Under the pieces are notes generated by a model. It made no database searches. It worked only from the letters and a program-made list of their open reading frames with translations, and was not told where the DNA came from. From Minisyncoccota bacterium (GTDB lineage: Bacteria > Patescibacteriota > Minisyncoccia > Phycocordibacterales > UBA1006): a stretch of 64,000 nt of DNA. The stretch is from contig DASWYC010000002.1 of NCBI GenBank assembly GCA_036405175.1, forward strand, positions 467,714-531,713, read 5' to 3'. Position 1 is the first letter of the stretch, and each line of letters begins with the position of its first letter. The position numbers were made by a program, and so were the translations under genes. Shown here one piece after another: positions 34,642 to 64,000 of this stretch.

Positions 34642-34738
34642 ATAAATATGATAGTTTTTCAGAACACGTTACGCCATTTCAAACAGCGCACAGTTATTCT
34701 GATAATTAGTTAATTCAATAAACAGGTACCTCAATAGA

Positions 34739-35209: not shown

Positions 35210-35213
35210 ACTT

Positions 35214-35636
35214 TTACTTCTTTACTGCTTTAGGGCGCTTAGTACCATAAAGTGATCGAGAAACACGGCGCTTGTCGATTCCTTTGGTATCAAACACACC
35301 ACGCACTACGTGATAACGAACTCCAATGAGGTCTTTCACACGACCACCACGAAGAAGCACTACTGAGTGTTCTTGGAGGTTATGACCTTCTCCTGGAATA
35401 TATGCGGTAACTTCTTTTCCGTTAGAAAGACGAACACGAGCGATCTTACGAAGCGCTGAGTTTGGTTTCTTTGGAGTTGTTGTTGAAACCTTCGTACACA
35501 CACCACGCTTAAATGGAGATGCGTATTCGGTTGGCTTGTTTTGAAGAGAGTTGAACCCTACACGGAAAGCCGTGGTACGTGTATTACGCACTTTGTCAGT
35601 TCGCCCCTTCTTGATGAGCTGTCTAATAGTCGACAT
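35214..35636 (-). CDS. rpsL: 30S ribosomal protein S12 (with about 13-aa N-terminal-region insertion)
   Basis: [22 protein letters not shown] and [19 protein letters not shown] conserved blocks. An extra [13 protein letters not shown] segment sits before KRGVC relative to E. coli S12. Confidence 0.95.
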
Positions 35637-43955: not shown

Positions 43956-43989
43956 TTGCCTAATCGTTAAAAATCAGTATACTTTTTGC

Positions 43990-45372: not shown

Positions 45373-45386
45373 AAGCAAGAGATTGA

Positions 45387-45419
45387 AACAGGCGCGACCT
45401 TCGGTCGCGCCTGTTTCAA
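45387..45419. terminator. bidirectional hairpin terminator
   Basis: GAAACAGGCGCGACC-TTCG-GGTCGCGCCTGTTTC perfect 15-bp stem between fmt (+) and the pilin cluster (-). Confidence 0.8.
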
Positions 45420-45424
45420 TCATC

Positions 45425-45943
45425 TTAACTATGCGGAAAATCTTTATACTTCACTCGCTCAACGACTGCACTAAAATATGGATCGGTCGCAAGCGGCGCC
45501 ACCATTGCTCCGCTGCTTTGTCTACAACTACTAAAGCCGCGCGCAAACATCATTGATTGGCTCCCCTGACTACCCAATGTGCTCCCATTAAGATCATAAT
45601 AGATAATTGCCTGAGCACAGGTTCCTGTTGTGGTATCAATCATACCCGTCAACATACGATATTTAAAGGTCCCATTTGTGCCTGATGTATATGAAGCCGA
45701 ATTTCCATTACATGTATATCCTGACGATGGCCATGTTGCGTTATTGAGTCGATCGTATCTAAATGCACACTCCATCATTGCATCAAGTGCCTCATAGGCA
45801 TTATTTTTATTCTGTGTAGTAATAGTTTGCATAGCACGAGATTTACCAATCTCGGTGATTGAAACGAACGCAAGCGAAAGAACACCAATCACTACAATCA
45901 CATACAAGAGCGCAATTCCTTTTTGAGATTTAAGATTATTCAT
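45425..45943 (-). CDS. GspK/PilX-like pseudopilin (no Glu5)
   Basis: N-terminus KSQKGIALLYVIVVIGVL lacks the +5 Glu, like GspK-type minor pseudopilins; last gene of the pilin operon. Confidence 0.45.
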   Translation of the reverse strand: MNNLKSQKGIALLYVIVVIGVLSLAFVSITEIGKSRAMQTITTQNKNNAYEALDAMMECAFRYDRLNNATWPSSGYTCNGNSASYTSGTNGTFKYRMLTGMIDTTTGTCAQAIIYYDLNGSTLGSQGSQSMMFARGFSSCRQSSGAMVAPLATDPYFSAVVERVKYKDFPHS

Positions 45944-46446
45944 ACCAGTTTGTAAAAATCGCTTTAGCTGCCACCGACTGAGTACTGCCCCGCTCTTGAT
46001 ATGTCACGGTTGAATTTACGCGAATTTCTGAAGGTCGTCCATTTGAGTCTGTGTTTAACGTATCAACTGTAATAGTACGTGTAAATGGCGAAGCTGTTGT
46101 TGCAGCTGCCTGATGTCCATATCCAAGTGCGCTTATTTTAAGTGCCGGACATGTTCCTGAACACGGCTTAAGCTCCGGGAGCGCAGCTCCGTCATTTACT
46201 ACATAGCATGGGACACTTGCCGTACACGTATTAATCGTTAAGTAGAAAAGTTTTTGTTGAAGAAGATTTGAATCTTTAATTGCACGAACTAATTCTGTCC
46301 CCTCTTCTGCAAGTAGCTCAGCCTGAATACGTACATCAGAACCAACCGTAGTGCGCAATGAATTTCCTAGTGCAAAAATTACTCCTGTTGTTACAAGCAT
46401 CAAAATGGTTACTGCGATTAATGTTTCAATAATGGTAAATCCTTTC
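45936..46446 (-). CDS. type IV pilin-like minor pilin (prepilin N-terminal methylation motif)
   Basis: MKGFTIIETLIAVTIL class III signal peptide: G-1, F+1, E+5. Confidence 0.6.
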
Positions 46447-46449
46447 ATA

Positions 46450-47136
46450 CTATTGCCATGTACTATTATATACATTTTGAATATTAACAATATTTCGTGA
46501 CTCGACCGTAAACTGGAATGTATAGTCTTTTGATGTGCCTCCAGCTGGAACAATGGTTCGTGCACGCATGAGCACGGTCACACGTGGGTGTACCGTCTTC
46601 TCTCCAATCTCGCCATCACCAATTGGTTTAAAACAAATTGAGTATACAGAAAGATCTTTAACGAGTGGCAACATCACCGTGTATTTTGTTGGATCAGCAG
46701 AATCAACATCAGTAGTAAGAACTAAACGCACGGTCTGCTGGTTGGCACTTGGAATATTAACCTTTTGAGTTGTTAAAAGATAGAGTGTCTGTTCATATCC
46801 ATCTTCCATAACATGATCAAGGTCATCATCCAACATTCCTATAGTCTCACCAAATCCCTGTGCTCCATCGCAGGCACTATTTGCTCCAAAGTTCTGCGCT
46901 GTTCCTAAATCAATCAGTTTGTATCCTGTATATTTTCTAAGTTCATTTTTGATTGAAAAGAGTGACTCGCTAAAATTCACCACGTAGTCCTGCTCTTTTT
47001 GAGATTTGCGCTGCGCACTCATGATTGTTGCAATAAGCCCCATTGCAGACAACGTAATAATTAAAAAGACTGTGATAGCAACCATCATTTCAACCAAAGT
47101 AAATCCTTTCAATTTTTTAATGATTTTTATAGACAT
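46450..47136 (-). CDS. type IV pilin-like minor pilin (PilW/GspJ-like)
   Basis: KKLKGFTLVEMMVAITVFLI prepilin motif. Confidence 0.6.
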   Translation of the reverse strand: MSIKIIKKLKGFTLVEMMVAITVFLIITLSAMGLIATIMSAQRKSQKEQDYVVNFSESLFSIKNELRKYTGYKLIDLGTAQNFGANSACDGAQGFGETIGMLDDDLDHVMEDGYEQTLYLLTTQKVNIPSANQQTVRLVLTTDVDSADPTKYTVMLPLVKDLSVYSICFKPIGDGEIGEKTVHPRVTVLMRARTIVPAGGTSKDYTFQFTVESRNIVNIQNVYNSTWQ

Positions 47137-47813
47137 ACTTGAGTAGTGCAGGCGCGACCAATAACCATCCCTCCATATGGAGACAATGTAATTGTGTACC
47201 ACAATGGTTGAAGTGGTGTTTTAAAGCTGAGTCGTATTCCTCTGCCAGAGTAGTAATCGGTGCCGGTCGAACTTGCAAAGAATGCGTACGGCCGCTCATT
47301 TGAGCCATGGTACGCCAAAGAAACTCCCTGCTGAAGCTGAGTTCCTGCTGTTGCCGTAGCTTCACAGTTAGCATGCGAGTCGCTCACAAAACATACTGAA
47401 TCAAATACTACACCAGGTGGAATGGTAATCGTTTTATAGATAGTATCACCGCCAGAAGCACTATACGCAAAAGAACCATACTGGGTTTTACTATAGCTTC
47501 CCGCTTTGCGATACAACGAAATGGTATTTCCTTGAACCAAAATACCACGCACTCCAGCAATATTTGCTGATGTACTTGGTGTATATTCCGCAAGTGATGC
47601 CGTACGGAATGACGCCAAGTCTGCGTATGAGCTTGCACGTACGGCGCCTTGTCCATATACGCTTGGCGTAAGTCCGCTCTGAACCTCAGAAATAAATGCT
47701 GCAATTTCTCCTTTACGAAGTGCATTTTGATAACTAAACACCCCAACAATGGTGAGTATTCCCAAAATCAGAAATACAACGAGCATTTCCGCAAGCGTAA
47801 AAGCTTTTTTCAT
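47127..47813 (-). CDS. type IV pilin-like protein (Ala at -1)
   Basis: MKKAFTLAEMLVVFLILGIL prepilin motif with A-1 and E+5. Confidence 0.6.
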   Translation of the reverse strand: MKKAFTLAEMLVVFLILGILTIVGVFSYQNALRKGEIAAFISEVQSGLTPSVYGQGAVRASSYADLASFRTASLAEYTPSTSANIAGVRGILVQGNTISLYRKAGSYSKTQYGSFAYSASGGDTIYKTITIPPGVVFDSVCFVSDSHANCEATATAGTQLQQGVSLAYHGSNERPYAFFASSTGTDYYSGRGIRLSFKTPLQPLWYTITLSPYGGMVIGRACTTQVCL

Positions 47814-47844
47814 AACTTTAGTATACCACTGGCAATGTTCATAA

Positions 47845-48687
47845 TTAGCCCAAAATACCCACGATCACAACACCAACAAATGCAATAATGAGCGATGGCC
47901 CAAACGGAATTACCTGCCCTCGCTTAAGTTTAAATGTTTTATGAGTGCGATAGTTTTCAACGAATGCCCACAGTAGTCCAATAATAGACGCTCCAAAAAG
48001 TGTCATCATCAAGAAGAAGAGACTCTGTTCAAAGAAAAACTTCGGCACACAATTTTTACAAAAATTTGCGAATGATAGCAATGGGAATACCAACATACCC
48101 ATAGCTCCCATTAAGATACCGTCACCATACCCCATCCATCGCTCCCTAGAGCCGATTGAAATAAGTACGAGCGGCATTGCCCACAACAATCCACTGCCAA
48201 GAATATATTTAATAAATATCAAAAATGGCGCTGCTTGAGGATTAATAAGAATAAATACCAGGATTATGGTAATAAGAACAACTGCATACAGCCATGCTAA
48301 TAATACATTTGGAAATACATAGTGGCGCGCATCAATAAGTGCCAAGAGCATAAAAAGACTTAAAATAGTACTTCCCACCAAAGCCCACACCGCTGCGTTC
48401 ATAGTAATGCCCATGAATCCAACAATGGTATAGATCATCAAAGAAAACACGAGTGCAAAACCAGCTTCAATAGCAATGTATGACCCTGAGCCTCTTATCT
48501 TGCATGTCTTACACCCAATAAACGCCCCAACAAATGGGATGAGTGAAGCTACTTCTAGCGGCTTTCCGCAATTATCACACTGCGAACGACCATGCATGGT
48601 TTTTACCCCAAACCGATCTGCAAAGCACATAAGAAAACTCGCCAATGTTCCCCCTAATAAAATAACAAGCATGACGAATATGATCAT
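47845..48687 (-). CDS. pilD: prepilin peptidase / N-methyltransferase (A24 family)
   Basis: N-terminal CxxC...CxxC zinc-binding motif (CFADRF...CDNCGKPL...CKTC), polytopic membrane domain, acidic residues of A24 peptidases. Confidence 0.85.
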   Translation of the reverse strand: MIIFVMLVILLGGTLASFLMCFADRFGVKTMHGRSQCDNCGKPLEVASLIPFVGAFIGCKTCKIRGSGSYIAIEAGFALVFSLMIYTIVGFMGITMNAAVWALVGSTILSLFMLLALIDARHYVFPNVLLAWLYAVVLITIILVFILINPQAAPFLIFIKYILGSGLLWAMPLVLISIGSRERWMGYGDGILMGAMGMLVFPLLSFANFCKNCVPKFFFEQSLFFLMMTLFGASIIGLLWAFVENYRTHKTFKLKRGQVIPFGPSLIIAFVGVVIVGILG

Positions 48688-48720
48688 ACTTGTTATTATA
48701 CGCTACTATTTTTCTATTTT

Positions 48721-50781
48721 TTAGTGAGGCATTTTAGTTCCATCAGCCTTGAGCATCACCGTATATCCTTGCTGTTGTCCATCCCAGTTACTAAACTCTC
48801 CAACCACAAAGAGTGAACCATCTGAATTCTCTGAAACAGAGCGGACAATGCGTGTTCCCAAAGCACCACTTGGACTGGTTCCATACTTAGATGGACGATA
48901 CTTGTTTAACTCAACAATTCCGTTACCTGCGTTGAATGTTGTATCAAGTGCTCCAGCTGCTGTAATACGAATTATATTATTCACACTTGTTGTGTTATAT
49001 TTATTAACATCACCAAATACCAATATCTTTCCAGATGAGAGCTTAATCATATACGCACCATATCCTGCTTCGATCTTGAGACTTCCACTATTAAATGTGG
49101 CGTCAGTTGTTCCATTGCTGTTAAGGCGCATGATATTTTTATAATTGTTATTTGATGAAGTAAATTGTCCTGAGATATATATCTTGCCATCAATTTCAAT
49201 AATTGATTGAATCCATGCAAAGTTATTAAATTGACTACGTGAAACACGGAATGAAGTATCAACGGTTCCATCACTGTTGAGGCGTGCCATTACTGACTCT
49301 CCTGGTGTTATATTTTTAATATCAAAGTCACCACTTGTAGAACTTGCTCCTGTTGCAGCATAGATTTTACCATCTGAAGCTTTCATAAGAGGCGCAACCC
49401 ATCCACCTCCGCCCCATACAAGTTGGTCACTGCTAATCTGATTTGATGCCATGGTTCCATCAGAGTTCAAAATAACAATTCCACTAAGAACATCTTGTCC
49501 TGATGATTTAGTATTGTCATCCCATTTCTTAAAGCGTCCACTTACCCAAATCTTTCCAGCTGATTCAATACTTGAAGCAGTACCACAATACGGTGCACCA
49601 AGGCCACACATAAGTCCATCATCAAGTTTGGTCATGAATGCACTATCAAGTGTTCCATTTGAGTTGAGCATGATGAGTCCTTTACCATCTACGCGAAGAT
49701 CGTTATACGTAGTTTCTGCAGAATCATCAAAGCCTGAACCAAGTACTAAGATCTTACCAGTACTCAACACATTAACTCCCGCAGTACCAGCACCTCCTCC
49801 TTGAGTGAAGAATGGTTCTGCATCAGTATCAGGATTAGAACTGCCGTTTTCATTTGCACCCTTAAGACCGTTGAGTGCTCCGGTGGTTTGGAATGTGGTA
49901 TCAAGCTCTCCTTTTTGATTAATACGTGCAAGCTTCCATACGGTGGTAGTGTCGTACATATTAAAGCTTCCTCCTACCACATATTTGCCGTCTTGCTGCA
50001 CATCCGCAGTTCTTACAATGTAGTTAAATGGTGCGAAGTGATTGCTTGGTCCACAAACGTCACCCACTGATCCGTCTTTGTCACACGCATCACAAGGATC
50101 TTGTTCGTTAGGAATTCCGTCATCATCGCAATCGGTATCACAATCGTCCCACTGGGTGGTGGGATTATCGATACAAATATTACAATTTGCCTGTCCAGGA
50201 GTACATACCTGTCCCCCATCTTGACTAAATCCAGATCCAAGTTCATAAACCACCGTTGAGTTATCAGGATCACACTGCCAGTCATCAACTAAGTTGGTTG
50301 GTGAAATTTCACCGGCAAATCCGGTATAGTCCGTACAATACATGGTCACATTTGGTGACTTAGTTTCAATATCGGCAATAACAAACCATGCAGTTCCGTC
50401 ACTCTTTTCGTGACAGGTTACGGCATTGTCTTTTCCGATATCGGTATTTGATGCAACTTCTTTTACAAACGAATCACTTGCTGGATTATATGCAGCATAT
50501 GAAAGACGCTTGGTTACACTTTGTGCATCCTCAACAAATCCAACTGAACACAAATCATTTCGATATACTTTTGCGTTTGTTGAACCTCCAACGGTTGTTG
50601 GTGTTAATAATACTTCTGACTTCTGACGAAGTGCAGAAACGGTTTTAATAGCAGCTGCTTTTGCTGCACGCTGACGCGCTCCTGCCAATGAAGGAAGAAG
50701 TACGGTAGCAAGAATAATAATTACTGACAATGATATAAGTAGCTCGGGGAGCGTAAGTGCTTTAAGAGTACGATGATTCAT
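48721..50781 (-). CDS. large pilin-like adhesin: prepilin N-terminus + thrombospondin-type-3-like Ca-binding Asp/Cys motif + delta-60-like repeat (beta-propeller) domain
   Basis: KALTLPELLISLSVIIILA prepilin helix (A-1, E+5). DCDDDGIPNEQDPCDACDKDG resembles TSP3 DxDxDGxxDxxD. About 5 repeats of ..S/NDGT.DTSF.. / AAGALDTTFNAGNG resemble the delta-60 repeat. Confidence 0.55.
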   Translation of the reverse strand: MNHRTLKALTLPELLISLSVIIILATVLLPSLAGARQRAAKAAAIKTVSALRQKSEVLLTPTTVGGSTNAKVYRNDLCSVGFVEDAQSVTKRLSYAAYNPASDSFVKEVASNTDIGKDNAVTCHEKSDGTAWFVIADIETKSPNVTMYCTDYTGFAGEISPTNLVDDWQCDPDNSTVVYELGSGFSQDGGQVCTPGQANCNICIDNPTTQWDDCDTDCDDDGIPNEQDPCDACDKDGSVGDVCGPSNHFAPFNYIVRTADVQQDGKYVVGGSFNMYDTTTVWKLARINQKGELDTTFQTTGALNGLKGANENGSSNPDTDAEPFFTQGGGAGTAGVNVLSTGKILVLGSGFDDSAETTYNDLRVDGKGLIMLNSNGTLDSAFMTKLDDGLMCGLGAPYCGTASSIESAGKIWVSGRFKKWDDNTKSSGQDVLSGIVILNSDGTMASNQISSDQLVWGGGGWVAPLMKASDGKIYAATGASSTSGDFDIKNITPGESVMARLNSDGTVDTSFRVSRSQFNNFAWIQSIIEIDGKIYISGQFTSSNNNYKNIMRLNSNGTTDATFNSGSLKIEAGYGAYMIKLSSGKILVFGDVNKYNTTSVNNIIRITAAGALDTTFNAGNGIVELNKYRPSKYGTSPSGALGTRIVRSVSENSDGSLFVVGEFSNWDGQQQGYTVMLKADGTKMPH

Positions 50782-50853
50782 AGGTATACCCTTAATTGTA
50801 ATATGAAAATTTTATGAGATTAGATGTTATCCACTTATTAGTATCAACTAAAA

Positions 50854-51324
50854 TTACTGACATGAGTTTGCATCAATATTTGCATACCCTGTTGAAGGAA
50901 CTACAGCTGCAAATCCACCAGAGTCTACACAAAAAATTGAAACATTGCTTCCTGTGATATCAACATCCATTGCTGCAACAAAATTATCAGTACCAGAAGT
51001 ACAGAAGTTAGCACCATTCGTAGTCGCAACGGTAGCACTTGGAGCTGCAGCGGTTGAATATCCAAGTGTGGTTCTTGCCTTATCAAAGAGGTCGCGTACA
51101 CCATTTACTCCTGCAGTGGTACAAATGCTTGCAGGCAAATTACCGCTTATTGTTCTAAGACGTTCAGCTTCTGATCTAAGAGATGAGAGTGACGATGTTG
51201 CACTTGCACTTTTAGCCTTGTTACGTGCCCCAGACAATGACGCCAACGCAACAGATGCAAGAATACCAATAATTGCTACCACAACGAGAAGCTCGATGAG
51301 GGTGAATCCTTTTTTAGAGTGAAT
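50854..51324 (-). CDS. type IV pilin (PilA-like), paralog 1
   Basis: KKGFTLIELLVVVAIIGILASVALASLSGARNKA. The N-terminal coding 94 bp is identical to the paralog at 52004-52480; Cys pair in the C-terminal region. Confidence 0.7.
   Translation of the reverse strand: MHSKKGFTLIELLVVVAIIGILASVALASLSGARNKAKSASATSSLSSLRSEAERLRTISGNLPASICTTAGVNGVRDLFDKARTTLGYSTAAAPSATVATTNGANFCTSGTDNFVAAMDVDITGSNVSIFCVDSGGFAAVVPSTGYANIDANSCQ
51221..51314. repeat. 94-bp perfect direct repeat (copy A) within the pilin 5' coding region
   Basis: Identical to 52368-52461; encodes the conserved pilin N-terminal helix. Confidence 0.85.
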
Positions 51325-51401
51325 CATATAAATAGATGAGTTAGAGCTCATAAAGATACCTATGAAAGGTTGAATTTAGTATACCATGCCTCGTACGTGT
51401 T

Positions 51402-51968
51402 TTAATTGAATGGCACGTTACTTAAATCGAATACCCAATCTTGTGCTTGACCAGAACTGTCTCCTGTTTTTATAAATGGCTTTCCAAACATACACCCAGC
51501 ACTTCCCTGCGTACAGCTGGCACTCATAGTAGCGTTAACAACGGTCATACATGTGTTTGCGCTTCCACTAAATTGAATGATTCGGTCATCATCATGCTGA
51601 AGCTCACGCCCATCAGGACTTCCTAGCATTGTGCTTACTGAGTATGCTTCACAGGTGCTCGTATTTCCATCAAGATCAAATGCAATGTATGTCACCTGCG
51701 CCTTTTGATCAGTGCTAAAATTTTGAAATTGAACCAAATTTGAATCATTTAACGATGCTGGATATTTTCCGTATTTTGCTTTATATGATTCAACGTTACC
51801 CGTAATAGATCTTACAAGACTGGCTTTATTGGTGTCATCGCCTACGGTGCGACTTCGGCTTACCATTACGGTAATAATACCAATAAACACTCCAATGAGA
51901 CCTATCACCACAAGCAGTTCAATTAATGTGAATGCTTGTAGAGACGATCTATTAGAGTGTTTTTTCAT
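51402..51968 (-). CDS. type IV pilin-like protein
   Basis: LQAFTLIELLVVIGLIGVFIGI prepilin motif with A-1. Confidence 0.6.
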   Translation of the reverse strand: MKKHSNRSSLQAFTLIELLVVIGLIGVFIGIITVMVSRSRTVGDDTNKASLVRSITGNVESYKAKYGKYPASLNDSNLVQFQNFSTDQKAQVTYIAFDLDGNTSTCEAYSVSTMLGSPDGRELQHDDDRIIQFSGSANTCMTVVNATMSASCTQGSAGCMFGKPFIKTGDSSGQAQDWVFDLSNVPFN

Positions 51969-52003
51969 ACTATCTTTATTGTATATCAGAAATATACGAA
52001 AGC

Positions 52004-52480
52004 CTAGTTACATGCGGTAGAAGCAATAGCCGTTGAGGTGCTCTTAGCGTTTCCAGAGTCATCAACACAGAAGTAACTGGTTGCAGAAGTACTTGAGTCA
52101 AGGTCCATGATAACCGCAATGCTTGATGGTGATGTTGAAGCATTGATAGTACATACAACAGTGTTACCTGCACCAGTTCCTGTACCGTTGTTGGTGTTGG
52201 TCTTAGTATAGGTACCTCCTGCTGAAGTAACAGCCTTGTCAATCAAGGTAAAGATTGAACCTGCAGAACAAACAGTCGCAGGAAGAGAACCATCTGAACC
52301 GCGCAAAGTTTCAGCTTCTGCACGGATTGCAGAGATAGTTGATTGAGCACTTGCCTGACGTGCACGGTTACGTGCCCCAGACAATGACGCCAACGCAACA
52401 GATGCAAGAATACCAATAATTGCTACCACAACGAGAAGCTCGATGAGGGTGAATCCTTTTTGGGTTTGGGTGTTTTTCAT
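52004..52480 (-). CDS. type IV pilin (PilA-like), paralog 2
   Basis: TQKGFTLIELLVVVAIIGILASVALASLSGARNRA; divergent C-terminal domain with conserved Cys. Confidence 0.7.
   Translation of the reverse strand: MKNTQTQKGFTLIELLVVVAIIGILASVALASLSGARNRARQASAQSTISAIRAEAETLRGSDGSLPATVCSAGSIFTLIDKAVTSAGGTYTKTNTNNGTGTGAGNTVVCTINASTSPSSIAVIMDLDSSTSATSYFCVDDSGNAKSTSTAIASTACN
52368..52461. repeat. 94-bp perfect direct repeat (copy B) within the pilin 5' coding region
   Basis: Identical to 51221-51314. Confidence 0.85.
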
Positions 52481-52520: not shown

Positions 52521-52943
52521 TTACGCGGCTAGTTTTCCACTGTTTCCTGAGTCTTCTCCTATGCGATGTTCAGAGTTAAAGGTATTTTTACCATGAGCCT
52601 GATCCTCCTCTTCTCCGCCTTCGTCTTCAAATTCATCATCAAATCCTCCATCTTTATATGCAGATACGGCTTCCTTATAATTCTGAGCCGTTGTTTTAAG
52701 GAGTTCAATGTACTTAGGCAATTCAGCACTTAAACGCTTAAAGAGATCGTCTTCATCTTTTGCTTCTTCAGTAATTTGCTCAAAGAGATTTGCCTCTTCT
52801 TCACTTGCTTGCTCAAGAAACTTCTCAAGTGCTTCGTTATATACCGTAAACGCTATTTCTGGGAAAATTTCTTCTGCTTCATCTTTAGGAAATGCAGACA
52901 TTCCTGTGTGTTCGTAGATAAGATAATCAAGTGGTGAATTCAT
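52521..52943 (-). CDS. acidic hypothetical protein
   Basis: 140 aa, strongly D/E-rich (DEFEDEGGEEED), between the giant protein and the first pilin gene. Confidence 0.45.
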   Translation of the reverse strand: MNSPLDYLIYEHTGMSAFPKDEAEEIFPEIAFTVYNEALEKFLEQASEEEANLFEQITEEAKDEDDLFKRLSAELPKYIELLKTTAQNYKEAVSAYKDGGFDDEFEDEGGEEEDQAHGKNTFNSEHRIGEDSGNSGKLAA

Positions 52944-52960
52944 ATGAAATCAGTATATCA

Positions 52961-55900
52961 TTATTTCTTAAATTTAAGTCCACCACGTAAACGCACAAGA
53001 TCACGCAACTTTTTCTGCTGTTCCAGGAATGCTTCAAAACGGAACAAGCGCAACATATAGTTCTTAAGAGGTTCTCCCTTAAGTGGACGGATTCCCATTT
53101 TAAGACCCTTTCCATGCTCATTTACCATCAAAAACTCTGGTGGAATACCTGCGCGTACCAAATTAGCAGTTCCATTTCGAATCGATTCCACTGAACTTCC
53201 TGGTTCATATGCATAGGTGCTACTAATCAGACTGTGAACCTCTGGTGTAGATATCTCAATTGGTGAGTTCTGTAATTCAACCTTCATTGTTTCTGGATTT
53301 ACTACCAACTGATTAAATGGCTTTTGTGCACCCGGGAAATTTGGAACATTTTGAATATCTTTATTAAGATCAATGACCAACTGATTCACGCTGTAGAGCT
53401 TTGCATTGAGCTGGGTTTTTAATGAACGCTCTGCAGGGTTCAATGAGGCGACATCGCCTTTTACACGACCACCCTGGGCCAACATCTTTTCAACTGTTGG
53501 ATTAGTATCAAAGTATCCTGGGATTTTTTCATTGGGACCAATAATATTAACCTTCTCTTTCCCTACCATGCCGTCAAGCTTCATCCATGCATCAAGCTTT
53601 TCTTTGGCACCAAAGTCGTAATCCCCTTCTTTGATTATGCGAGGGTTATACATCTTGGTATAAATTTGATCCCATTCTAATTGAGTTTTTGGGAGACGCG
53701 TTGAAACACCAGGCGTACCAAGCATTTCATCTGGTGTAGTAATATGTCCAAAAATGTTATCAAGATACAATCCCCCTGTTCCTTTTTTAATATTTGCCAA
53801 CAATTCACCGGTAATTACTGGATCAGCATTTACCTCCATAAATTCACGAACAATCTGCTTGCGGAGTTCTGCATTATTTAATGTAAACAAAGTTGCATAT
53901 TGATCACCCTCAAGCGGCGGCTTGGTCCACATGCGTGAATACTTGGTAATACTATTGAGTGCCCCATTTTTATCAAGAGATCCAGAATACTGAACTCCAT
54001 TACTATCTAAACCGGCACGCACAATATTAGGATCAACAAAATACCCTTCTCGAGAACCTGAGTAAACAAGATTGCCAGGATTCAAAGGATCTTCAAGTTG
54101 AACAGCTTTAATTTGAGGATTATATGTTTCTGATCCAGTTCCAAAGCCATCGTCATCCGTAACAAATCTTGGACCACCCATACTATCAACGGTTCGATTA
54201 GTTATTACAGGGCTTGCAGCACTGGTATTTACTGTTCCAACGTCATCATCGGTAACCATCTCTACTTTTTCTGAAGATGGAGTTAGTATCTGATTCTGTC
54301 CAAATTTGTCCATTTCAAGCTCATTACTAAAATCATCTGAAATAATGCCAGCGTTATATGATGAAACTGGAGCCCTTTGAGACGCAATCATGTCTTGCAT
54401 TTCTTTATCTAATGCTTCTCGAGATGAAGAAATTCCCTGATCACTCATTGATGGAGGAGCAATTTCCTGATCATTGTTGTCAATAAAATTGCTTGCAGTT
54501 TTTGGAATAACCACATTATCAACCGGAGGTTTAAACTCTGGCTCAGGCGCCTGAGCAATATCATCATCTGTTACAAAACGAGGATTTTCCTGAGCGTCCA
54601 ATCCGCCAGCTGCCTCGGCAACATCTTTCGGCAATTTATTTTCAGCAATAATCTTCTCTGCTACTTCTCGTGCTTTTTCATCTACAGATCCAAGATCTTG
54701 AGCCTCAATCTTAAGACGATGTTGAGGAATAACCTTAGCCTCATATGGAACTTTATTATCAGGGTTACCTGGCTGAGTATTAAATAATTTATTTGGATCA
54801 ATTTGTTGAGTCTTAGGAGGCACTTCTTCTCCATGTGCCCCAAATACGTCGTGAGCAAGGCCCAATAATGCACCCAATGCAATAAATCCTGCTGATACTG
54901 ATGCTTGTTTTGCAGCTTTTTCTGCAACGTATTTTCGCTTAGCAGATTTAATTACCTCAACTTGAGCTTTAATTTTTCGGATGCGCTCTTCTTCTGCTGT
55001 TTCAGACTGAGCTGGACTAGTAATTGTTTCAACCTGAGCACGCTTATCTGAATACGTAGAAATTAAATATGCTGCACCCATCACCTTATTCAAGGTTAAA
55101 TATTCAGTTGCACGTTTACCTATTTCAGAATCCTCAAGTTCTGGATCAACGATTCTTCCATCTACTTGATTTTCAGAACTAAATGTTAACAGTCTATTCT
55201 TAAGAGCAATATTAGAAAGTTCATATAAATCCTGAATCTTTTTCTGGGCACGTGTTACATTAAAGTAATCATCTGGATCAATGTCATCATATTCTGCAAT
55301 TGCATTTCTGAGCTGTTCGATCATATCGCTTGCAGCTACATTCTCCTTCCGCATCGCCTCAATAACACCCTGTTCCCCCCTGTTCATAAGGCGACCATAC
55401 CAAGCAAATAGTCCCTTTTTATAGATCTTCTCTTCAGTACCTTTGATTGATGCTGATTCGCCCTTATACCCAGGAGCCTTCTCAAAATCCTTACCCATAC
55501 CAAGCATTTCATACGTACGCTTATGATTTAAACGTGCGTTCTCCTGAACAGATGCCAACGCAAAACGCACCACAGCACCAAGCCCCATAGTTGGTAACAA
55601 ATTAGTAAACGCCACCGCATGATCAACAGTCATACCAACAATTTTTCTACGCAAATACCCAAGAGACATTGAGGCACCCGCATATGCAGCTGATCGTCCA
55701 TACTTGCGCTCAACTTTCTTTTCATGATCAAGCTCAACCTCTACCATGCGCATAAAGTCACCTGCCGACTTTGAGGAAATAGCATTACTCATAATATCAG
55801 CTCGCAATGCATCAGGAACCTGCCCCTCCAAAGATTCAACAAGCTTTACCAACTCAAGCTCTTTAAAACTAATTTTCTCTCGCTCGGCAGTCTGAAATGG

Positions 55901-58292
55901 ATCATGTAAGCCAAAGAATTTTTTAACACCAGAAAATGTTTCTTTAATCTCTTTTCCAATCTTGGTGCGACCTTCTTCTGTTGTCACATTATTTAAAAGA
56001 TTCCCCGTTGCTTTAATTGGTACATTTACGATTGTTGAAACCGTGTCACCAAAATCCTGTTTACCAAGCTCTTTCCAAAAACTCTTCTTTCCCATTTTCT
56101 GTAAGAGTGAGTGTTCTTTAGGAGGACCAAGCTTAAGATAATCATCGGAGAGTTCGTTCAAAGAACCAATAATCTTGCTTCTCACTGACTCGTCCGCAAT
56201 TCCATCAAGAGAGTTTTCTAAATCTTCACGATCTGCAAAAGCATCACGCTTTGTATTAATATACGTATTTACAAGTTCCTTCATTTTATAGGTAAATTCA
56301 TCTTTCAATTTATCTTGTGCTTCCCCATCAAATTCTGCAATGGTTGTCTTTACTCCAACACCAAAAAAGCGTTTGGCCTTGGCAAGCTTACCGAGCATTT
56401 TAGGAACAAAAGTTCCATCTTGCATCTCACCAGCATATTTATTATTACGAAAATCAATTTCCTGTTCACGCTCAAAGGCTGTCTTCATTGAATACAAGAC
56501 TTTCTTAAGAATGAGTTCACGATGATTTGATGGAATATGTTCAAGGTCAGGAATTTCATCAAGTATTTCCTGTTGAGTAAATCCATACTTTTCATATGAT
56601 TCGGTAATATCAAACGTATGTTCCTCTTTTTTGAGCTCAGCTTTTTTAGGTTCAACCATTAGAGGAGTCTTTCTATCAAGAGGAACGGGCTCTTTATCAG
56701 TATCAGCCTCTTCATTTTCGTCCAACTTTGGAATCCCCATGTGATCAATTGGTTGAGCATATAGTTTACCTATTTTGTTTACAACCTTATTCAAGAAGCT
56801 CGGTTTTTTTTCTTCATCCTCTACATCATCTGTAAGTTTTAGATCCTCCTGCTTAATCTCTACCGAAAGTGGATACGGATTAGTACCAACAGGAGCAAAT
56901 GGCACATTCCCCATCTGGTTAAACATCCTATTTAAAAGACTTGGCTTCTGTTCACCTGCTTCTACTGGAATCTCTTCTTTTGGTTCAATAACATCGTCCG
57001 GTTGTGAGACTGAATAAGGAACATATCCCACAGGAGAAAATTCAACATTCCCCATTTGATTAAAGATCCTATTCATAAAACTTGGCTTTGACTCACCTAC
57101 CTCTAGCGGAACTTCTTCTTGCTGCAACACATCACCACCTGGCTCAAGTTCGCCACCTTCTGGAGATGGAGTAATAAGCATATGGTCCACAGGATATCCT
57201 GACATATCGCCCACCTTTTGCACCATCCTACCAATTCGCGTAGCATTTTGTTGTGCAATCTTTTTTTCTTTTTGTTTTTCTTGAAGCAGGCGTTCCTCTT
57301 CTGATCCAGGCTCTAAAAGATTATTGTTATCAGAATCATCCTCCATTACTACGTTTTCAATATTACCAGTGGTAAACGGTGCCATAGATCTATTGATTGA
57401 AACAAATGCATCCGTAATTGGCGTCGCTAGATTCATATGGATAAAACTAAAGAGATCCCTACCACTGTCAGGAATTGTATTTACCGTTAAACCGCCATTT
57501 TTATATTTTTCATAAAATTCTTCTAGCTTTTTCTGCTTTACAAAACCACTCTGGATTCCTAATTCCAAAAAAGATTTTGGAAAATTGAGGTCTTCGTAGA
57601 ATGCTAAAACATTCGGCGCAAGCTCGAGCTTCTTGCTTTCTTGTTCAACAGAAGCGCTAATTAGCTGAGAAAAGATACTTTCTCTTTTTGTTTTATTATC
57701 CTTAATATACTCATCAAAAATTACTGCCTCATCGGTAATATTGTATGCAACAAATACGCGCTTTAGATTTGAAGGTATCTCATCAGCCTTGTTCACATCT
57801 GTAACTTTTGCAGCTGACAATAAAAGCACCTTGCGAACTAAGTCTTTATTATTAATATCAATATACGACGCAAGCTTTTCAGCAAATAGATAGAATTCAG
57901 CGTTATTGTAATAATCTATACGAGAAGCGATCTGTTCAAAAGAAAGAGGGCTTTGGGTATTGTTAAGAACATTCTGCAGACTCGTTGCACACTCACTTTT
58001 TTCTGCCTTTGTTTTAGATTTGTACCCTACGAGTTTACTCAATAAGCGTGCCCACACAATAACTTCATCGTCAATTGATATATTATCTTGTTTTTTAAGT
58101 TCTTTTATAAACTTAAGCACACTTTTTGATTCCCATAATACATATTGTGTTTCTTTCAAAAAGGCATCCAGATAGACCCCATTCTCACTTTTTAATTTTT
58201 CAGCAAAAGCAACATCAAAAGGTTTAAATTCTTTTTCTGAATCCTTCCGAGACTCTTCTTGATTTTTTTGCGGACCATTCTCCAACGACATG
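52961..58292 (-). CDS. giant (about 1776 aa) multidomain protein of unknown function
   Basis: Continuous ORF. First ATG at 58292 is preceded by TATACT + 6 nt; the ORF track extends to TTG 58309. Internal 3x tandem repeat about 45 aa (KPSFMNRIFNQMGNVEFSPVGY / KPSLLNRMFNQMGNVPFAPVGT / KPSFLNKVVNKIGKLYAQPIDHMG). Duplicated PRFVTDDD motif, central hydrophobic segments, no N-terminal signal peptide. Confidence 0.7.
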
Positions 58293-58334
58293 TTCTTAGT
58301 ATACAACAATAACCATCTTAAAAGATGGTTATTG

Positions 58335-58670
58335 TTGGTATGAATACACCGATAAGCCGAATTCTGTAGTTTGTGTACATGTATCTGGGAGCTGTGTTAC
58401 CACAACCCTCAAGCGGCACTCCGTATTGCTACGGCACGGCCTTGCATGTGCGTATGAATTTTGCCGTTTCACCTTGTATGTTGCCATACAAGCTCACCCA
58501 CAAGGGGTGCCCGTTGATTGCTCTTGGGGCGTCTCTGCTCGCATCACTCATGAGTCATAGCTCATGGATGGGTATTACCCACTACGGTCCTCATGCATTA
58601 CTGCATGACATGTTCGGACTTTCCTCTCCTTGCGGAGCGTACACATGGTGTGGTAGTAGTATAGAGAATT
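58335..58670 (-). ncRNA. rnpB: RNase P RNA (bacterial type A-like); ends approximate
   Basis: Minus-strand reading contains GAGAGGAAAGTCCGAAC (P4 5' strand, compare GGAAAGUCCGGGC), AAGGTGAAACGG (compare AAGGGUGAAA.GGUG) and ACAGAATTCGGCTTATCGG (P4 3' strand, compare ACAGAACCCGGCUUAUCGG). GC-rich relative to flanks. Confidence 0.75.
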
Positions 58671-58699
58671 ACCATGAAAAAACAAGGTGTAAAGATAGA

Positions 58700-58728
58700 G
58701 CCCGATCAGCTTCGCTGATCGGGCTCAT
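58700..58728. terminator. hairpin terminator
   Basis: GAGCCCGATCAGC-TTCG-GCTGATCGGGCTC perfect 13-bp stem downstream of the DUF192 gene and upstream of rnpB. Confidence 0.75.
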
Positions 58729-59855: not shown

Positions 59856-60737
59856 TTATTTAGGTGTATTGCGCTTGGTCTTGCGGCGAGATACCACAAG
59901 GTTGCGTGAATACTTACGAGGGTTACGGGTTTTAACTCCGTAGGCTTGTTTTCCATAGCGGGTCTTTGGACCTTTACGGAGACCAATACCTTGTTTCTGT
60001 TCTCCTCCTCCGTGTGGGTGATCAACTGGGTTCATAGCAGTACCACGAACAGCTGGTCGAATTCCACGCCAACGACTACGTCCTGCTTTTCCTTTAGAAG
60101 CAAGTCCGTGATCAGTGTTTGAAGCTTCTCCGATAGTTGCAAAACAAATATCAGGAACCTTGCGCACTTCACCAGAAGGCATTTTAAGAAGAGTTGATCC
60201 TGCGTCATGCGCAGCAACAGATACTGATGAACCTGCAGAACGAGCAAGCTTTGCTCCTCCTCCAGCTTTCAATTCAATATTATTTACCAACATACCAACA
60301 GGAATGTATTTCAACATCATGCGGTTTCCAGTGGTAAGCGGAGCTTCATCAGCAATGATGAAGGTTGATCCAACAGTCATCCCCTTTGAAAGGACAACAT
60401 AGCGGCGCTCTCCATCTTTAAAGAGGGCGAGTCCAATATATGCTGAACGGTTTGGATCGTATTCCACGGTTTCAATACGCGCAGGAATATTCTTTTTATC
60501 CAAAAGAAAATCAACTACGCGGTACAAACGCTTGTTTCCTCCTCCTTTGTGTGGAGCAGTGATGCGTCCGTGGTGGTTGCGTCCCATGTGACGCTTGCGT
60601 CCGAAGGTCAATTTCTTGAACGGTTCAGATGCAGTAACAACATCCTTGTGCTTCACCAATCTGGTGTGACGCAACGAAGGTGTTGCTGGTTTAAATTGTT
60701 TAATTGCCATAGTGTATTGTGTCGCTATCGGTGACAC
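59856..60737 (-). CDS. rplB: 50S ribosomal protein L2
   Basis: Full-length uL2 with the conserved GGGKRLYRV... core and C-terminal basic tail. Confidence 0.95.
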   Translation of the reverse strand: MSPIATQYTMAIKQFKPATPSLRHTRLVKHKDVVTASEPFKKLTFGRKRHMGRNHHGRITAPHKGGGNKRLYRVVDFLLDKKNIPARIETVEYDPNRSAYIGLALFKDGERRYVVLSKGMTVGSTFIIADEAPLTTGNRMMLKYIPVGMLVNNIELKAGGGAKLARSAGSSVSVAAHDAGSTLLKMPSGEVRKVPDICFATIGEASNTDHGLASKGKAGRSRWRGIRPAVRGTAMNPVDHPHGGGEQKQGIGLRKGPKTRYGKQAYGVKTRNPRKYSRNLVVSRRKTKRNTPK

Positions 60738-60758
60738 GCCATAATCTTATTTCTATAA

Positions 60759-61097
60759 TTAGAACTCAATAGTATCTCCTTTTTTAAGGGTTACATACGC
60801 TTTTTTAGGAGTCTTAACGATTCCTACCTTGTTGCGAATGATGCGCTGTTCACGCTGATCGCTGACAAGATTTACTTTTGCAGGACGTACTCCATAGAGT
60901 GCTTCAACTGCAAGACGTACTTGAGTTCTATTAGCTCCGTGCGCAATATCAAAAACGTAAACGTTATTGCTATTGAGCTGTGCAGCTTTTTCAGTAATTC
61001 GAGGATTTTTAATGATTGAAGCAACTGAAGCTTTAACAGCATCTGAAAGCTTAGAATCAGTCTTTACAACTTTTTTTGCTCTAGGCATATTATTCAC
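60759..61097 (-). CDS. rplW: 50S ribosomal protein L23
   Basis: uL23 core ...YVFDIAHGANRTQVRLAVEALYGVRPAKVN... Confidence 0.9.
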   Translation of the reverse strand: MNNMPRAKKVVKTDSKLSDAVKASVASIIKNPRITEKAAQLNSNNVYVFDIAHGANRTQVRLAVEALYGVRPAKVNLVSDQREQRIIRNKVGIVKTPKKAYVTLKKGDTIEF

Positions 61098-61791
61098 TTA
61101 CTTTTTTAGTCATTAAATTATTCCATCGACCAAGCATAATATCTTGTACTGAATCTGCATCTGCAACTACTACGTAGCGAGCTTTTGCAATATCATACGC
61201 AGACACGTTTCGTGCTGTTGTGATCTTTGCATACGGAAGGTTTTTAAATCCTTGAAGAATTGCTTTGGTTGCAGCTGGTACAATCACGAGCATGTTGTTT
61301 ATGTTCTTTTTTGTATCAAGTGTTCCAAATCCTTCAACGGTTTTCCATCCTCCAACAATCGTTTCACCTTCTTTGGTCTTTCCTTCTACTTTTTCAAGTG
61401 ATTCGGTAAAGAGTACGTTTCCGGTGCGATTCTTTTCTGAAAGGAGTGACACGAGTGCGCCGAGTCTCATCTTAGAGTTAATCTTTTGTGAGTAATCTTT
61501 TTCACTGCGTGGTCCGTGCGTGGTTCCTCCACCTACCCAGATTGGTGATCGGGTTGATGCATGACGAGCACGTCCGGTTCCCTTTTGCTTCCAAGGCTTC
61601 TTTCCTCCTCCAGCAACTTCTCCTCGGTCTTTAGTGTGAGCCGTTCCTGATCGCATATTTGCCATCATTGAGGTCACTACTTGGTGAACAAGGTCTTGCT
61701 TGAATGGGTTACCAAAAACTTCAGGAGCAAGATCGATAGCTTTTACTTTCTTACCCGCAAGCGAGTAGAGTGTAGATGTAAGTTTTTCCAT
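61090..61791 (-). CDS. rplD: 50S ribosomal protein L4
   Basis: uL4 length and KQKGTGRARHASTRSPIWVGGG motif. Confidence 0.9.
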   Translation of the reverse strand: MEKLTSTLYSLAGKKVKAIDLAPEVFGNPFKQDLVHQVVTSMMANMRSGTAHTKDRGEVAGGGKKPWKQKGTGRARHASTRSPIWVGGGTTHGPRSEKDYSQKINSKMRLGALVSLLSEKNRTGNVLFTESLEKVEGKTKEGETIVGGWKTVEGFGTLDTKKNINNMLVIVPAATKAILQGFKNLPYAKITTARNVSAYDIAKARYVVVADADSVQDIMLGRWNNLMTKKVSE

Positions 61792-61792
61792 A

Positions 61793-62398
61793 TTACTTTA
61801 CTGAGTTAATAGTAACGAGTGAGCCCGGACGACCAGGGAGAGCTCCTTTAATGTACATAAGATTTTGCTCTTTATTAATGAGCAAAACCTGGAGATTTTT
61901 TACGGTGATAGTATCTCCTCCCATACGGCCTCCCATACGTGTTCCTTTGAACACACGTTGAACACCACCAATACCAATAGAACCTGGCTCTCGTTCTGAG
62001 TGCTTTTGTCCATGACTACGGCGGCCTCCTTTAAAGCCGTGACGCTTCACAACTCCTTGGAATCCTTTTCCTTTTGAAGTTCCTGAAGCAATAACTTTAG
62101 CTCCTTCAACCATATCAAGTTCAAGAACTGATCCAATTGGAGAAAGTGCATCAACTTCTAATTCACTGATGTGTCTAAAGTTTCCAAGGCCATTGAATTG
62201 ACCTTTTTGTGCATTGTTAATGTTTTTTTCTTGTTTGGTTCCATACCCAACAATGAGGGCTTGGTAACCATCTTTTTCAACAGTGCGATGACCAATAACG
62301 GTAAGGGGCATAATTTCTACCATCGTTGCTGGAGAAACTTTTCCGTCAGTACCGAACACTTGTGTCATCCCACGTTTTGAACCGATTACGGTATTCAT
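61793..62398 (-). CDS. rplC: 50S ribosomal protein L3
   Basis: uL3: GTSKGKGFQGVVKRHGFKGG... motif. Confidence 0.95.
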   Translation of the reverse strand: MNTVIGSKRGMTQVFGTDGKVSPATMVEIMPLTVIGHRTVEKDGYQALIVGYGTKQEKNINNAQKGQFNGLGNFRHISELEVDALSPIGSVLELDMVEGAKVIASGTSKGKGFQGVVKRHGFKGGRRSHGQKHSEREPGSIGIGGVQRVFKGTRMGGRMGGDTITVKNLQVLLINKEQNLMYIKGALPGRPGSLVTINSVK

Positions 62399-62467
62399 AT
62401 ATGTAGAGGTTCCCTCTTACCCATTTCTAAGCAAGAGGGAACGTGCGATGTTTTAGTTTGTAATTAC

Positions 62468-62815
62468 TTACACGGTCTTAACTTTCACATCAACTCCTGA
62501 TGGAAGATTAAGGTTCGTGAGAGCCTCAATGAGTTTTGGTGAGGGGTTGATAATATCAATGAGGCGTTTGTGTACACGGATTTCAAACTGTTCGCGTGCG
62601 TCCTTGTGAACGAAGGTTGAACGGTTTACGGTGTACTTTCTAATTTCGTTAGGAAGTGGAACAGGACCCTTAACAATTCCCTCATGCTTGAATGCAGTAT
62701 CAATGATTTGTTTCACTGATGTGTCCAAGAGTCGGTTTTCATATGCACGAATGTGAATACGAAGTTTGATAGCATCTTCTGCTCCAGCCGCCTTTTTAGC
62801 TTTTGCTGTTGCCAT
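62468..62815 (-). CDS. rpsJ: 30S ribosomal protein S10 (with Lys/Ala-rich N-terminal extension)
   Basis: uS10 core IRIHIRAYENRLLDTS...GPVPLP preceded by MATAKAKKAAGAEDA. Confidence 0.9.
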   Translation of the reverse strand: MATAKAKKAAGAEDAIKLRIHIRAYENRLLDTSVKQIIDTAFKHEGIVKGPVPLPNEIRKYTVNRSTFVHKDAREQFEIRVHKRLIDIINPSPKLIEALTNLNLPSGVDVKVKTV

Positions 62816-62857
62816 ATCTTAGTACGCCTTTATGAGACGGGGCAAAGCCCCGTACCA

Positions 62858-64000
62858 CTAAGCGTTAATCTTGGTAACAACTCCTGCTCCTACGGTTCGT
62901 CCTCCCTCACGGATGGTGAATCGCTGTTGTTCTTCAACAACTACCGGCGCAACGAGTTCAACATTGAACTTAACAGTGTCTCCAGGCATAACCATTTCAA
63001 CACCTGCTGGAAGAGTTACAGATCCAGTTACGTCAGTTGTACGGATGTAGAACTGAGGCTTGTAACCTGCGAAGAATGGAGTGTGACGTCCACCTTCTTC
63101 CTTCTTAAGAATATATACTTCACATTCAAAATTGGTGTGAGGCTTTACAGTCTTAGGAGCTGCAAGTACCTGTCCACGATGAATGTCTTCCTTCTTAACT
63201 CCACGAAGAAGAATTCCTGCGTTGTCTCCTGCCATTCCTTGTTCGAGTGACTTGTTGAACATTTCAACTCCAGTAACGGTAGTTGATGCAGTATCTTTAA
63301 GTCCTACGATTTCGATGGTTTCTCCAACTTTAACAATTCCACGTTCGATCTTTCCGGTTACCACGGTTCCACGTCCTTCAATTGAGAAGATGTCTTCTAC
63401 TGGCATGAGGAATGGCTTTTCGGTATCGCGCTCTGGAAGTGGGAAGTATTCATCAGCAGTATCAATCAATTTCTTGATCTTTTGTGCCCATGGATCTTCA
63501 GCTGAAGTTGATTCAAGCGCCTTAAGCCCTGATCCGATCACGAAAGGAGTTTCCTTTCCATCAAATCCGTACTTGGTGAGGAGCTCGCGGATTTCCTCTA
63601 CAACGAGTTCAATCATTTCAGGATCATCAACCATGTCTTCCTTGTTAATAAATACCATGAGTTTTGGAATTCCCACCTGACGAGCAAGAAGAACGTGTTC
63701 GCGAGTTTGTGGCATCATTCCGTCGGTAGCTGCAACAACGAGGATTGCTCCGTCCATCTGCGCTGCTCCGGTAATCATGTTTTTAATGTAGTCCTGGTGA
63801 CCTGGTGCATCTACGTGTGCGTAGTGGCGATTAGGAGTCCAGTACTCAGAGTGGTGAAGAGAAATGGTAATTCCACGCTCCTTTTCCTCTGGTGCATTGT
63901 CGATGTTATCTACGTTTTCTACGCGAGCCCCGTACCCGTTTCCGAGCATATTAAGCACGTGAAGAATAGACGCAGTAGTGGTAGTTTTTCCATGGTCAAC
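62858..64000 (-). CDS. tuf: elongation factor Tu (N-terminus beyond right window edge)
   Basis: [11 protein letters not shown]1 motif at the window edge; [16 protein letters not shown], domains II/III. Ends ...VTKINA. Confidence 0.9.

Follow-up and report, generated by a model that had tools for sequence, protein, structure and literature searches.

What is a giant gene, wedged between the RNase P RNA gene rnpB and a block of type IV pilin genes, for, and why does its sequence look so unlike that of its neighbours? The question is raised by a 64,000-nt stretch (below, the window) of a Minisyncoccota genome (contig DASWYC010000002.1 of assembly GCA_036405175.1, positions 467,714 to 531,713), which belongs to an ultrasmall Paceibacterota bacterium of the candidate phyla radiation (CPR). 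A first-pass annotation of the sequence had described the gene as the leaderless head of a pilin operon and as part of an undescribed pilus-linked system. Our analyses indicate that the giant is a single hyper-divergent, sharply bounded gene in a conserved neighbourhood, and that the conserved unit at this fixed locus consists of the giant gene and a small partner encoded directly downstream. The sharply bounded divergence was absent from the first-pass annotation and is the most informative property of the locus. The two genes are as follows.

52961..58291, minus strand: giant coding sequence, 1776 aa plus stop (ATG at 58291, stop codon at 52963-52961)
52521..52943, minus strand: small acidic open reading frame (ORF), 140 aa, isoelectric point (pI) 4.2, with its own TATACT box 8 nt upstream

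An intact gene confined to three lineages

The giant ORF is a real, intact gene. It runs uninterrupted over 5331 nt, and at 40% GC the chance of 1776 stop-free codons is approximately 1e-50. The length of 1776 aa given earlier was correct, while the span of 52961-58292 was off by one at the start codon. A frameshift had been raised as a possible objection; since the identical gene is present in three independently assembled sequencing runs, a frameshift artefact does not account for it. NCBI annotates the product as a hypothetical protein on a 668-kb contig of a Candidatus Paceibacterota metagenome-assembled genome. The protein is acidic (pI 5.15, net charge approximately -51) and nearly free of cysteine: the family members contain 1 Cys in 1776 aa, none in 1347 and 2 in 886, compared with 0.35% for housekeeping proteins.

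Family searches with the giant were negative throughout. The whole protein had no match in Pfam or NCBIfam at E<=0.01, none in PHROGs, PADLOC or the PDB sequences, and none by tblastn against phages and plasmids. When all three family members were compared with Pfam at E<=10, the sole match was Uteroglobin (E=0.43, one member), which we attribute to chance, and profiles of the N-terminal and C-terminal domains had no match in family and structure libraries. A match to the designed repeat protein 7q58 and matches to flagellin (E ~0.6) were dismissed as noise. The giant contains no Walker A, HExxH, nuclease, peptidase or other simple catalytic motif, in agreement with the first-pass description. 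Homology to SMC proteins, housekeeping ATPases or RNases, which would have pointed to a known housekeeping role, was looked for by profile and motif, and neither a profile match nor a Walker A motif was found.

Relatives were recovered by exhaustive search. A word-indexed search of 5.8 billion proteins returned the giant itself and nothing else. A HMMER search with residues 578-1776 against 1.84 billion cluster representatives identified two true relatives, P0002 (1347 aa, E=2e-60) from the lineage of locus L004 and P0003 (886 aa, E=4e-29) from locus L005; the window's own protein is referred to as P0001. A further match, P0004, was rejected: it is a eukaryotic protein of Ig repeats, and 13 weak repeat matches add up to its score. 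A C-domain profile found no further member in the 5.8-billion-protein index, a genome scan returned the L004 lineage again (L007) and no other relative, and two metagenome scans, one with the C-domain profile and one using the propeller pilin of the locus as an anchor, found nothing. Detectable homologues of the giant are thus confined to three lineages of one Paceibacterota clade.

A sharply bounded zone of divergence

The three loci share one gene order: tuf-S10-L3-L4-L23-L2, a response regulator gene, a DUF192 gene, rnpB, the giant and the small acidic ORF. Between the window and L005, the proteins encoded on the rnpB side of the giant are 99% (L2), 94% (L23), 88% (L4), 80% (DUF192) and 76% (response regulator) identical, and those on the other side 76% (small partner), 62-80% (pilins), 89% (propeller pilin) and 80% (PilD). 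The giant proteins of the same two loci (1776 versus 886 aa) align over the N-domain (28% identity) and the C-domain (33%) only. At the nucleotide level the edges of this divergence nearly coincide with the ends of the ORF. In blastn comparisons with L005, 90% identity extends through rnpB and the hairpin behind it and ends at 58294, 3 nt before the ATG; similarity resumes at 80% identity from 52975 on, 14 nt before the end of the stop codon, and the ORF between these points has no detectable similarity.

Synonymous positions point in the same direction. Four-fold-site identity over the alignable parts of the giant is 0.30 (n=53), equivalent to the saturation value of 0.32 calculated from base composition, a figure that derives from an alignment of approximately 32% identity in which partial misalignment is possible. 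The corresponding identity is 0.59 for the non-ribosomal flanks (Fisher p=7e-5 versus the giant) and 0.66 for all flanks pooled. The three giant alleles are approximately equidistant, with 25-33% identity in all pairs, and differ two-fold in length (1776, 1347 and 886 aa); the genomes are related hierarchically (L2 99% vs 87%).

Within each of the three lineages the giant gene is 100% identical across independent samples and projects. This invariance rules out programmed hypervariation, whether by a diversity-generating retroelement or by phase variation, and the genes scanned included no reverse transcriptase. An integrated island at rnpB was likewise rejected, as no repeat of the rnpB 3' end was found and no integrase domain was present in the genes scanned. 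GC content is flat across the region (0.37-0.42), with no compositional shift. Read most simply, these data mean that the alleles greatly exceed the surrounding genome in age, having been exchanged by recombination in the flanks or kept by long-term diversifying selection.

The small acidic partner

Since all three lineages keep the pair, the giant and the small acidic ORF form a conserved two-gene unit downstream of rnpB. The small protein is 72-76% identical in the other two lineages (BLASTP) and is confined to the same three lineages as the giant. Two of the three orthologues match DUF5663 (PF18908) below the gathering score of 23.7, P0007 with 17.0 bits (E=0.009) and P0006 with 13.8 bits (E=0.09), in both cases over positions 2-82 of the 84 in the profile. 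The window's own copy, P0005, has no listed DUF5663 match. DUF5663 proteins resemble the small ORF product in size and in their acidic, helical character, and the latter is possibly a divergent member of the family, as judged by these profile scores. A literature search on DUF5663 returned nothing informative, the family being one of unassigned function. In PADLOC the small ORF gave a weak match (E=0.022).

Architecture of the giant protein

A module map was drawn from pairwise comparison with the relatives, from composition and from the secondary structure of low-confidence AlphaFold2 (AF2) models. It contains the following regions.

57350..58249, minus strand: N-terminal all-alpha domain, residues 15-314, with helices taken from a low-confidence AF2 model only
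56672..57265, minus strand: acidic Pro-rich disordered region, residues 343-540, found in the window allele only
54917..56647, minus strand: central all-alpha region, residues 549-1125, 25% identity to P0002
54830..54916, minus strand: hydrophobic helix, residues 1126-1154, closing a long helix; possible N-in membrane anchor
53951..54829, minus strand: acidic Pro-rich linker, residues 1155-1447, pI 4.3, not alignable to the relatives
52964..53950, minus strand: basic C-terminal domain, residues 1448-1776, pI ~9

The giant is composed of three conserved modules, namely the N-domain, the helix-rich region with its hydrophobic helix and the basic C-domain, joined by allele-specific acidic Pro-rich linkers. 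The N-terminus is hydrophilic and carries neither a signal peptide nor a prepilin signal, so that the first-pass reading was right in finding no N-terminal signal peptide. The N-domain is 28% identical to residues 7-274 of P0003 and includes a conserved motif, W[DE]S.[SE]V. The best conserved part of the protein is the C-domain, with the motifs HITTPDE.GTPG..RLPK, ESI.NGTA and PLKGEP..NY.LRL.RF followed by a very basic helical tail. It had been described as a globular region of approximately 450 aa; a conserved C-domain is indeed present, with a length of only about 300-330 aa. AF2 models of the C-domain (alignment of three sequences, pLDDT 45.8) and of residues 1-1200 (single sequence, pLDDT 35.6) were too poor for fold assignment, and a Foldseek search of the PDB with the low-confidence C-domain model gave no match at E<0.5.

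The allele-specific segments contain short repeats. Three 47-aa repeats start at residues 402, 449 and 496 of the disordered region, with a degenerate fourth near 346; the three repeats of approximately 45 aa reported at first were therefore present, slightly longer than stated and accompanied by a further copy. At the DNA level the repeat (56865-57120) extends over 115 nt at 74% identity with a spacing of 141 nt. Amphipathic 11-mers lie at residues 350, 406, 453 and 500, spaced by 47 aa and, to the degenerate first copy, by 56 aa; their hydrophobic moments of 0.68-0.85 compare with a 95th percentile of 0.58 and a 99th percentile of 0.69 in the protein. Two copies of PRFVTDDD, noted previously, were located at residues 1237 and 1374, and VTDDD recurs at 1346, all within the acidic linker.

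Hydrophobic character is concentrated in the middle of the protein. Gly/Ala-rich helices of moderate hydrophobicity occupy residues 864-916 of the central region, and P0003 lacks central hydrophobic helices of this kind. The central hydrophobic segment of the first-pass description corresponds to the helix at 1126-1154. Its KD19 value is 1.69 in P0001 and 1.01 and 1.21 at the homologous sites of P0002 and P0003, and the summed Hessa dG is +1.0 in the window allele versus +6.6 and +5.3 in the relatives, so that the helix satisfies the classical transmembrane criterion in the window allele only. The flank upstream of the helix is basic in all three proteins, with a charge of +4 to +5. Anchoring of the giant in the membrane by this helix, with the N-terminus inside, is possible on these sequence features.

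Promoters and leaderless starts

58298..58303, minus strand: TATACT -10-like box, ending 6 nt before the ATG of the giant

In all three lineages an invariant TTGTATACTA follows the rnpB hairpin, and the ATG lies 6-7 nt past TATACT. The position of the box predicts that transcription begins with the A of the ATG, in support of a leaderless mRNA, and the giant gene has no Shine-Dalgarno (SD) sequence. The earlier description of the gene as leaderless is thus plausible, and the arrangement suggests that the giant has its own promoter. The pattern is genome-wide and not peculiar to the giant. TATACT ends 4-14 nt before the start codon in 11 of the 62 genes of the window, where 0.27 would be expected by chance, and an SD-like motif was found in only 3 of the 62. 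The box has the form (TGn)TATACT, with examples at 58298-58303, 52952-52957, 47820-47825, 43978-43983 and 10342-10347. A literature search on leaderless genes in Patescibacteria returned nothing informative.

These starts bear on the claim of a pilin operon with the giant at its head. The giant, the small ORF, pilD and four pilin genes each have TATACT, TATACA or TATAAT 6-12 nt before the ATG and no SD sequence, and the -10 box of the small ORF is conserved in the relatives. Because leaderless translation needs a 5'-terminal AUG, the boxed genes are probably transcribed singly, which weakens the case for a single operon headed by the giant. The co-directional arrangement and the lack of a strong terminator before 45421 still stand; judged by the predicted promoters, separate leaderless transcripts are at least as likely as one polycistron.

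The pilin block and its link to the giant

45425..52480, minus strand: type IV pilin block, adjoining the giant and the small ORF (adjacency only)
52004-52480, 51402-51968 and 50854-51351, minus strand: pilins
48721-50781, minus strand: pilin/beta-propeller fusion, 686 aa
47845-48687, minus strand: PilD
47127-47813, 46450-47202 and 45936-46565, minus strand: pilins
45425-45943, minus strand: pilin-like ORF of 172 aa, recognised by eye only, with no family match
45381..45421, minus strand: strong intrinsic terminator with a 19-bp stem, end of the co-directional block

A prepilin N-methylation motif is present in seven ORFs of the block, the 686-aa fusion among them. The set listed at first, eight pilins with pilD and the acidic 140-aa ORF, can thus be kept for seven pilins that carry the motif, while the eighth was assigned by eye only. 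The absence of an internal terminator until 45419 also agrees with our analysis, in which the only strong terminator is that at 45421-45381. No pilus ATPase, motor or platform genes were found in the 64-kb window, and comparison of the giant with models of PilB, PilC, PilM, PilN, PilO, PilY1 and FimV gave no similarity.

Downstream of the two-gene unit, L005 has three pilins, the propeller pilin and PilD in exactly the order of the window. What lies behind the pair in the L004 lineage is a gene for a secreted 947-aa C39-peptidase protein and then a non-pilin ORF; there are no pilins in the 3.7 kb downstream, where all assemblies end. Synteny with the pilins, proposed earlier as a check, therefore holds between the window and the very close L005 and does not hold within the 3.7 kb available from the L004 lineage, where non-pilus genes follow. 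Shared gene order is in any case a weak guide to function here, because the three genomes are closely related and L2 of the window and of L005 is 99% identical. What remains of the proposed pilus-linked system is the position of the giant in a CPR genome beside a type IV pilin/PilD cluster, and only this adjacency suggests a role of the giant in pilus function.

Three further observations concern these loci. The 686-aa modular pilin, 89% conserved in L005, combines a prepilin N-terminus with a Cys/Asp-rich linker and a DUF5122/delta-60 beta-propeller and would be a pilin-fused analogue of the PilY1 propeller. Two paralogous major-pilin genes are 100% identical over 95 nt of their N-terminal coding halves (52367-52461 vs 51220-51314), which suggests recent gene conversion between pilin paralogues. 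In the C39 region of L004 (14532-17375), every assembly, from three projects and including L008-L010, breaks just beyond the same point, suggesting a repeat or a strain-variable region there.

rnpB and the upstream neighbourhood

58337-58656, minus strand: rnpB, reduced class A RNase P RNA, 320 nt (RF00010)
58305..58336, minus strand: 15-bp hairpin directly 3' of rnpB

The giant had been placed directly downstream of rnpB, and the identity of rnpB was verified by covariance model. The RNA matches RF00010 over model positions 1-367 (full length) with E=3e-26 and 86 bits; as the gathering score is 100, rnpB scores below the Rfam threshold and would escape default annotation. It occupies the same position in L004 (9626-9948, 94 bits) and L005 (4136-4450, 83 bits), with a length of approximately 315-323 nt. 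The hairpin behind rnpB is kept by compensatory changes, with CATC/GATG in the window and CGCC/GGCG in L005, and is probably the rnpB 3' end or a terminator structure.

Other features of the region were noted in passing. The gap between the DUF192 gene and rnpB contains a terminator-like bidirectional hairpin (58698-58726; 13-bp stem with 9 GC pairs), and a hairpin of this strength implies that rnpB has its own promoter. In L005 only, an extra Ser-hydrolase gene (3480-4040) lies between the DUF192 gene and rnpB. The str/S10 ribosomal cluster is rearranged (59856-63958 and 32482-35636): the run stops after L2 in all three lineages, S19 and later ribosomal genes are outside the window, and S12-S7-EF-G lies 24 kb away. 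A literature search on DUF192 in connection with pili returned nothing informative.

Interpretation of the locus

The explanation we put forward, tentatively, is that the giant is an envelope-associated protein at the interface with a host or phage, the conserved ends of which dock to conserved partners. It is suggested by the pattern of divergence, which is typical of loci at such interfaces. Alleles that had diverged anciently or been exchanged would be swapped through recombination in the conserved flanks and kept by diversifying selection. The helical N-terminal part and the four amphipathic motifs would lie on the cytoplasmic face of the membrane, in which the hydrophobic helix would hold the protein with its N-terminus inside; from there the Pro-rich acidic linker would cross the wall and leave the basic C-domain exposed outside. 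Such an N-in, C-out topology is proposed because the hydrophobic helix has a basic flank on its upstream side and leads into a Pro-rich acidic linker. Docking partners for the conserved ends would be the small acidic protein and, possibly, the pilus apparatus, and the linkers and central region would be free to diversify.

Several observations weigh against this explanation. Envelope localisation and topology are weakly grounded: a signal peptide is lacking, and only in the window allele would the hydrophobic helix make a credible membrane span. The supposedly exposed C-domain is the best conserved part of the protein, and exposed adhesin domains are usually the most variable. Both AF2 models are unusable (pLDDT 46 and 36), the sample consists of three lineages, and the alignment behind the saturated four-fold sites is itself subject to the misalignment mentioned above. 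In addition, four-fold identity is also low for DUF192 (0.36) and the response regulator (0.45), so the whole rnpB region, and not the giant alone, may be a recombination-prone or gene-flux hotspot.

Four other explanations were weighed. The first-pass view, in which the giant is a pilus-associated factor (for assembly, for anchoring or associated with the tip) encoded by the first gene of a pilin/PilD operon, seems to us unlikely. The gene adjoins PilD and eight pilin-like genes that run in its direction, the first strong terminator comes at 45421, and the same order is found in L005; however, L005 is too close for that order to inform, and non-pilus genes follow the pair in the third lineage. 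Within the block, several genes come with a -10 box of their own and no SD sequence, the giant lacks a prepilin signal and any similarity to the pilus models, and since the pilins are 62-89% conserved and the giant only about 30%, the giant and the pilins do not co-evolve. We would also be surprised, to a similar degree, if the giant proved to be a cytoplasmic or membrane-peripheral scaffold, a hub in the manner of PodJ, HubP or FimV, with amphipathic motifs that recruit clients or bind membrane and with fast evolution resulting from disorder. An acidic, predicted all-alpha protein with long disordered stretches, four amphipathic motifs spaced by 47-56 aa and a basic helix at the C-terminus would suit such a role, as would the missing signal peptide, the weak transmembrane character in the relatives and the closeness of a pilus locus and a single-domain response regulator. 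The giant nevertheless has no LysM, TPR or FimV C-terminal motif and no match to any family of this type, its structured end domains are also only about 30% identical, and disorder alone leaves the saturated synonymous sites and the equidistant alleles unexplained.

In another alternative, the giant would be an exported effector or a membrane-inserting translocator that reaches the host cell by an unassigned route, with the small acidic protein as its chaperone. The pair would be comparable to a type III secretion system translocator with its class II chaperone, or to an LXG protein with its helical partner. The divergence would suit a host-facing protein, several Gly/Ala-rich helices of moderate hydrophobicity are present in a protein with no signal peptide, and a conserved acidic helical partner of approximately 100 aa is encoded directly downstream. 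We regard this explanation as very unlikely, as the window is without genes for a secretion system, homology to translocator, LXG or chaperone families was not found and P0003 is without the central hydrophobic helices. A toxin/immunity pair of the polymorphic type, or a gene for anti-phage defence in a variable hotspot, could account for a hyper-divergent gene between conserved flanks and for the varying gene content nearby (the Ser-hydrolase in L005, the C39 protein in L004), but is so improbable that we give it little weight. Within the giant, conservation is highest in the C-domain, and for the small ORF it reaches 72-76%; with the conserved parts so placed there is no toxin-immunity co-variation. 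PADLOC was negative for the giant and weak for the small ORF, and neither a Walker A, nuclease or peptidase motif nor an att repeat, integrase or compositional shift was found.

Our preferred explanation, that of an envelope protein at a host or phage interface, can be extended to a more specific proposal, which we consider decidedly unlikely in its full form. The giant and its DUF5663-like partner would then be an undescribed two-gene envelope or host-contact module of Paceibacterota, with alleles exchanged at a fixed site after rnpB under diversifying selection. Export or membrane insertion would proceed without a signal peptide, with the small protein as chaperone or docking partner, and the module would act with the neighbouring type IV pilus in host recognition.

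Comparison with known systems

The polar hubs FimV, HubP and PodJ offer one comparison, which is no more than an analogy. These proteins are large and acidic, pass the membrane once or associate with it, and contain long disordered repeat regions; in length and sequence they differ strongly among relatives, and their function is linked to type IV or Tad pili. The giant differs from them in having no LysM or peptidoglycan-binding domain, no TPR, no FimV C-terminal motif and no sequence similarity, and its membrane span is not robustly conserved. Synonymous-site saturation such as that of the giant is not known as a feature of these hubs. PilY1 and modular pilins offer another analogy, a large protein beside minor pilins at a locus that also contains a beta-propeller module. 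PilY1, however, has a signal peptide and a C-terminal beta-propeller, whereas here the propeller sits in the separate 686-aa pilin and the giant is predicted to be all-alpha or disordered, without a prepilin or Sec signal.

In its evolution the locus is closer to the flagellin gene fliC, the slpA cassette of C. difficile and class I/II pilE, which likewise combine sharply bounded divergence with conserved termini and with alleles older than their flanks. The giant has no homology to these, no variation within populations was seen among its lineages, and its surface exposure is inferred only. The comparison nonetheless indicates what the locus offers, which is an evolutionary handle: a single gene, bounded to a few bases, holds ancient or exchanged alleles while everything around it, the pilins included, evolves normally.

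CPR bacteria depend on host cells through contact molecules that are mostly unknown; suspicion usually falls on giant lineage-specific proteins, for which sequence by itself seldom gives a starting point. Orphan giant ORFs beside pilins are common in CPR genomes. The window's giant is a lineage-specific giant CPR protein with an unusually clean evolutionary signature, and no new mechanism is demonstrated. It resembles the giant surface proteins of Vampirococcus lugosii (PMC8080830) in its length (>1300 aa), its CPR genome and its location near cell-surface genes, where orphan giant proteins are familiar in CPR genomes (PMC8080830). Such proteins are suspected of mediating host contact (PMC8080830). 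Most of the Vampirococcus lugosii giants carry interaction or adhesion domains (WD40, PKD, integrin or fibronectin; PMC8080830), while the window's giant has no recognisable domain of this type. Together with its small partner, it is a priority candidate for a determinant of host or phage specificity in this clade.

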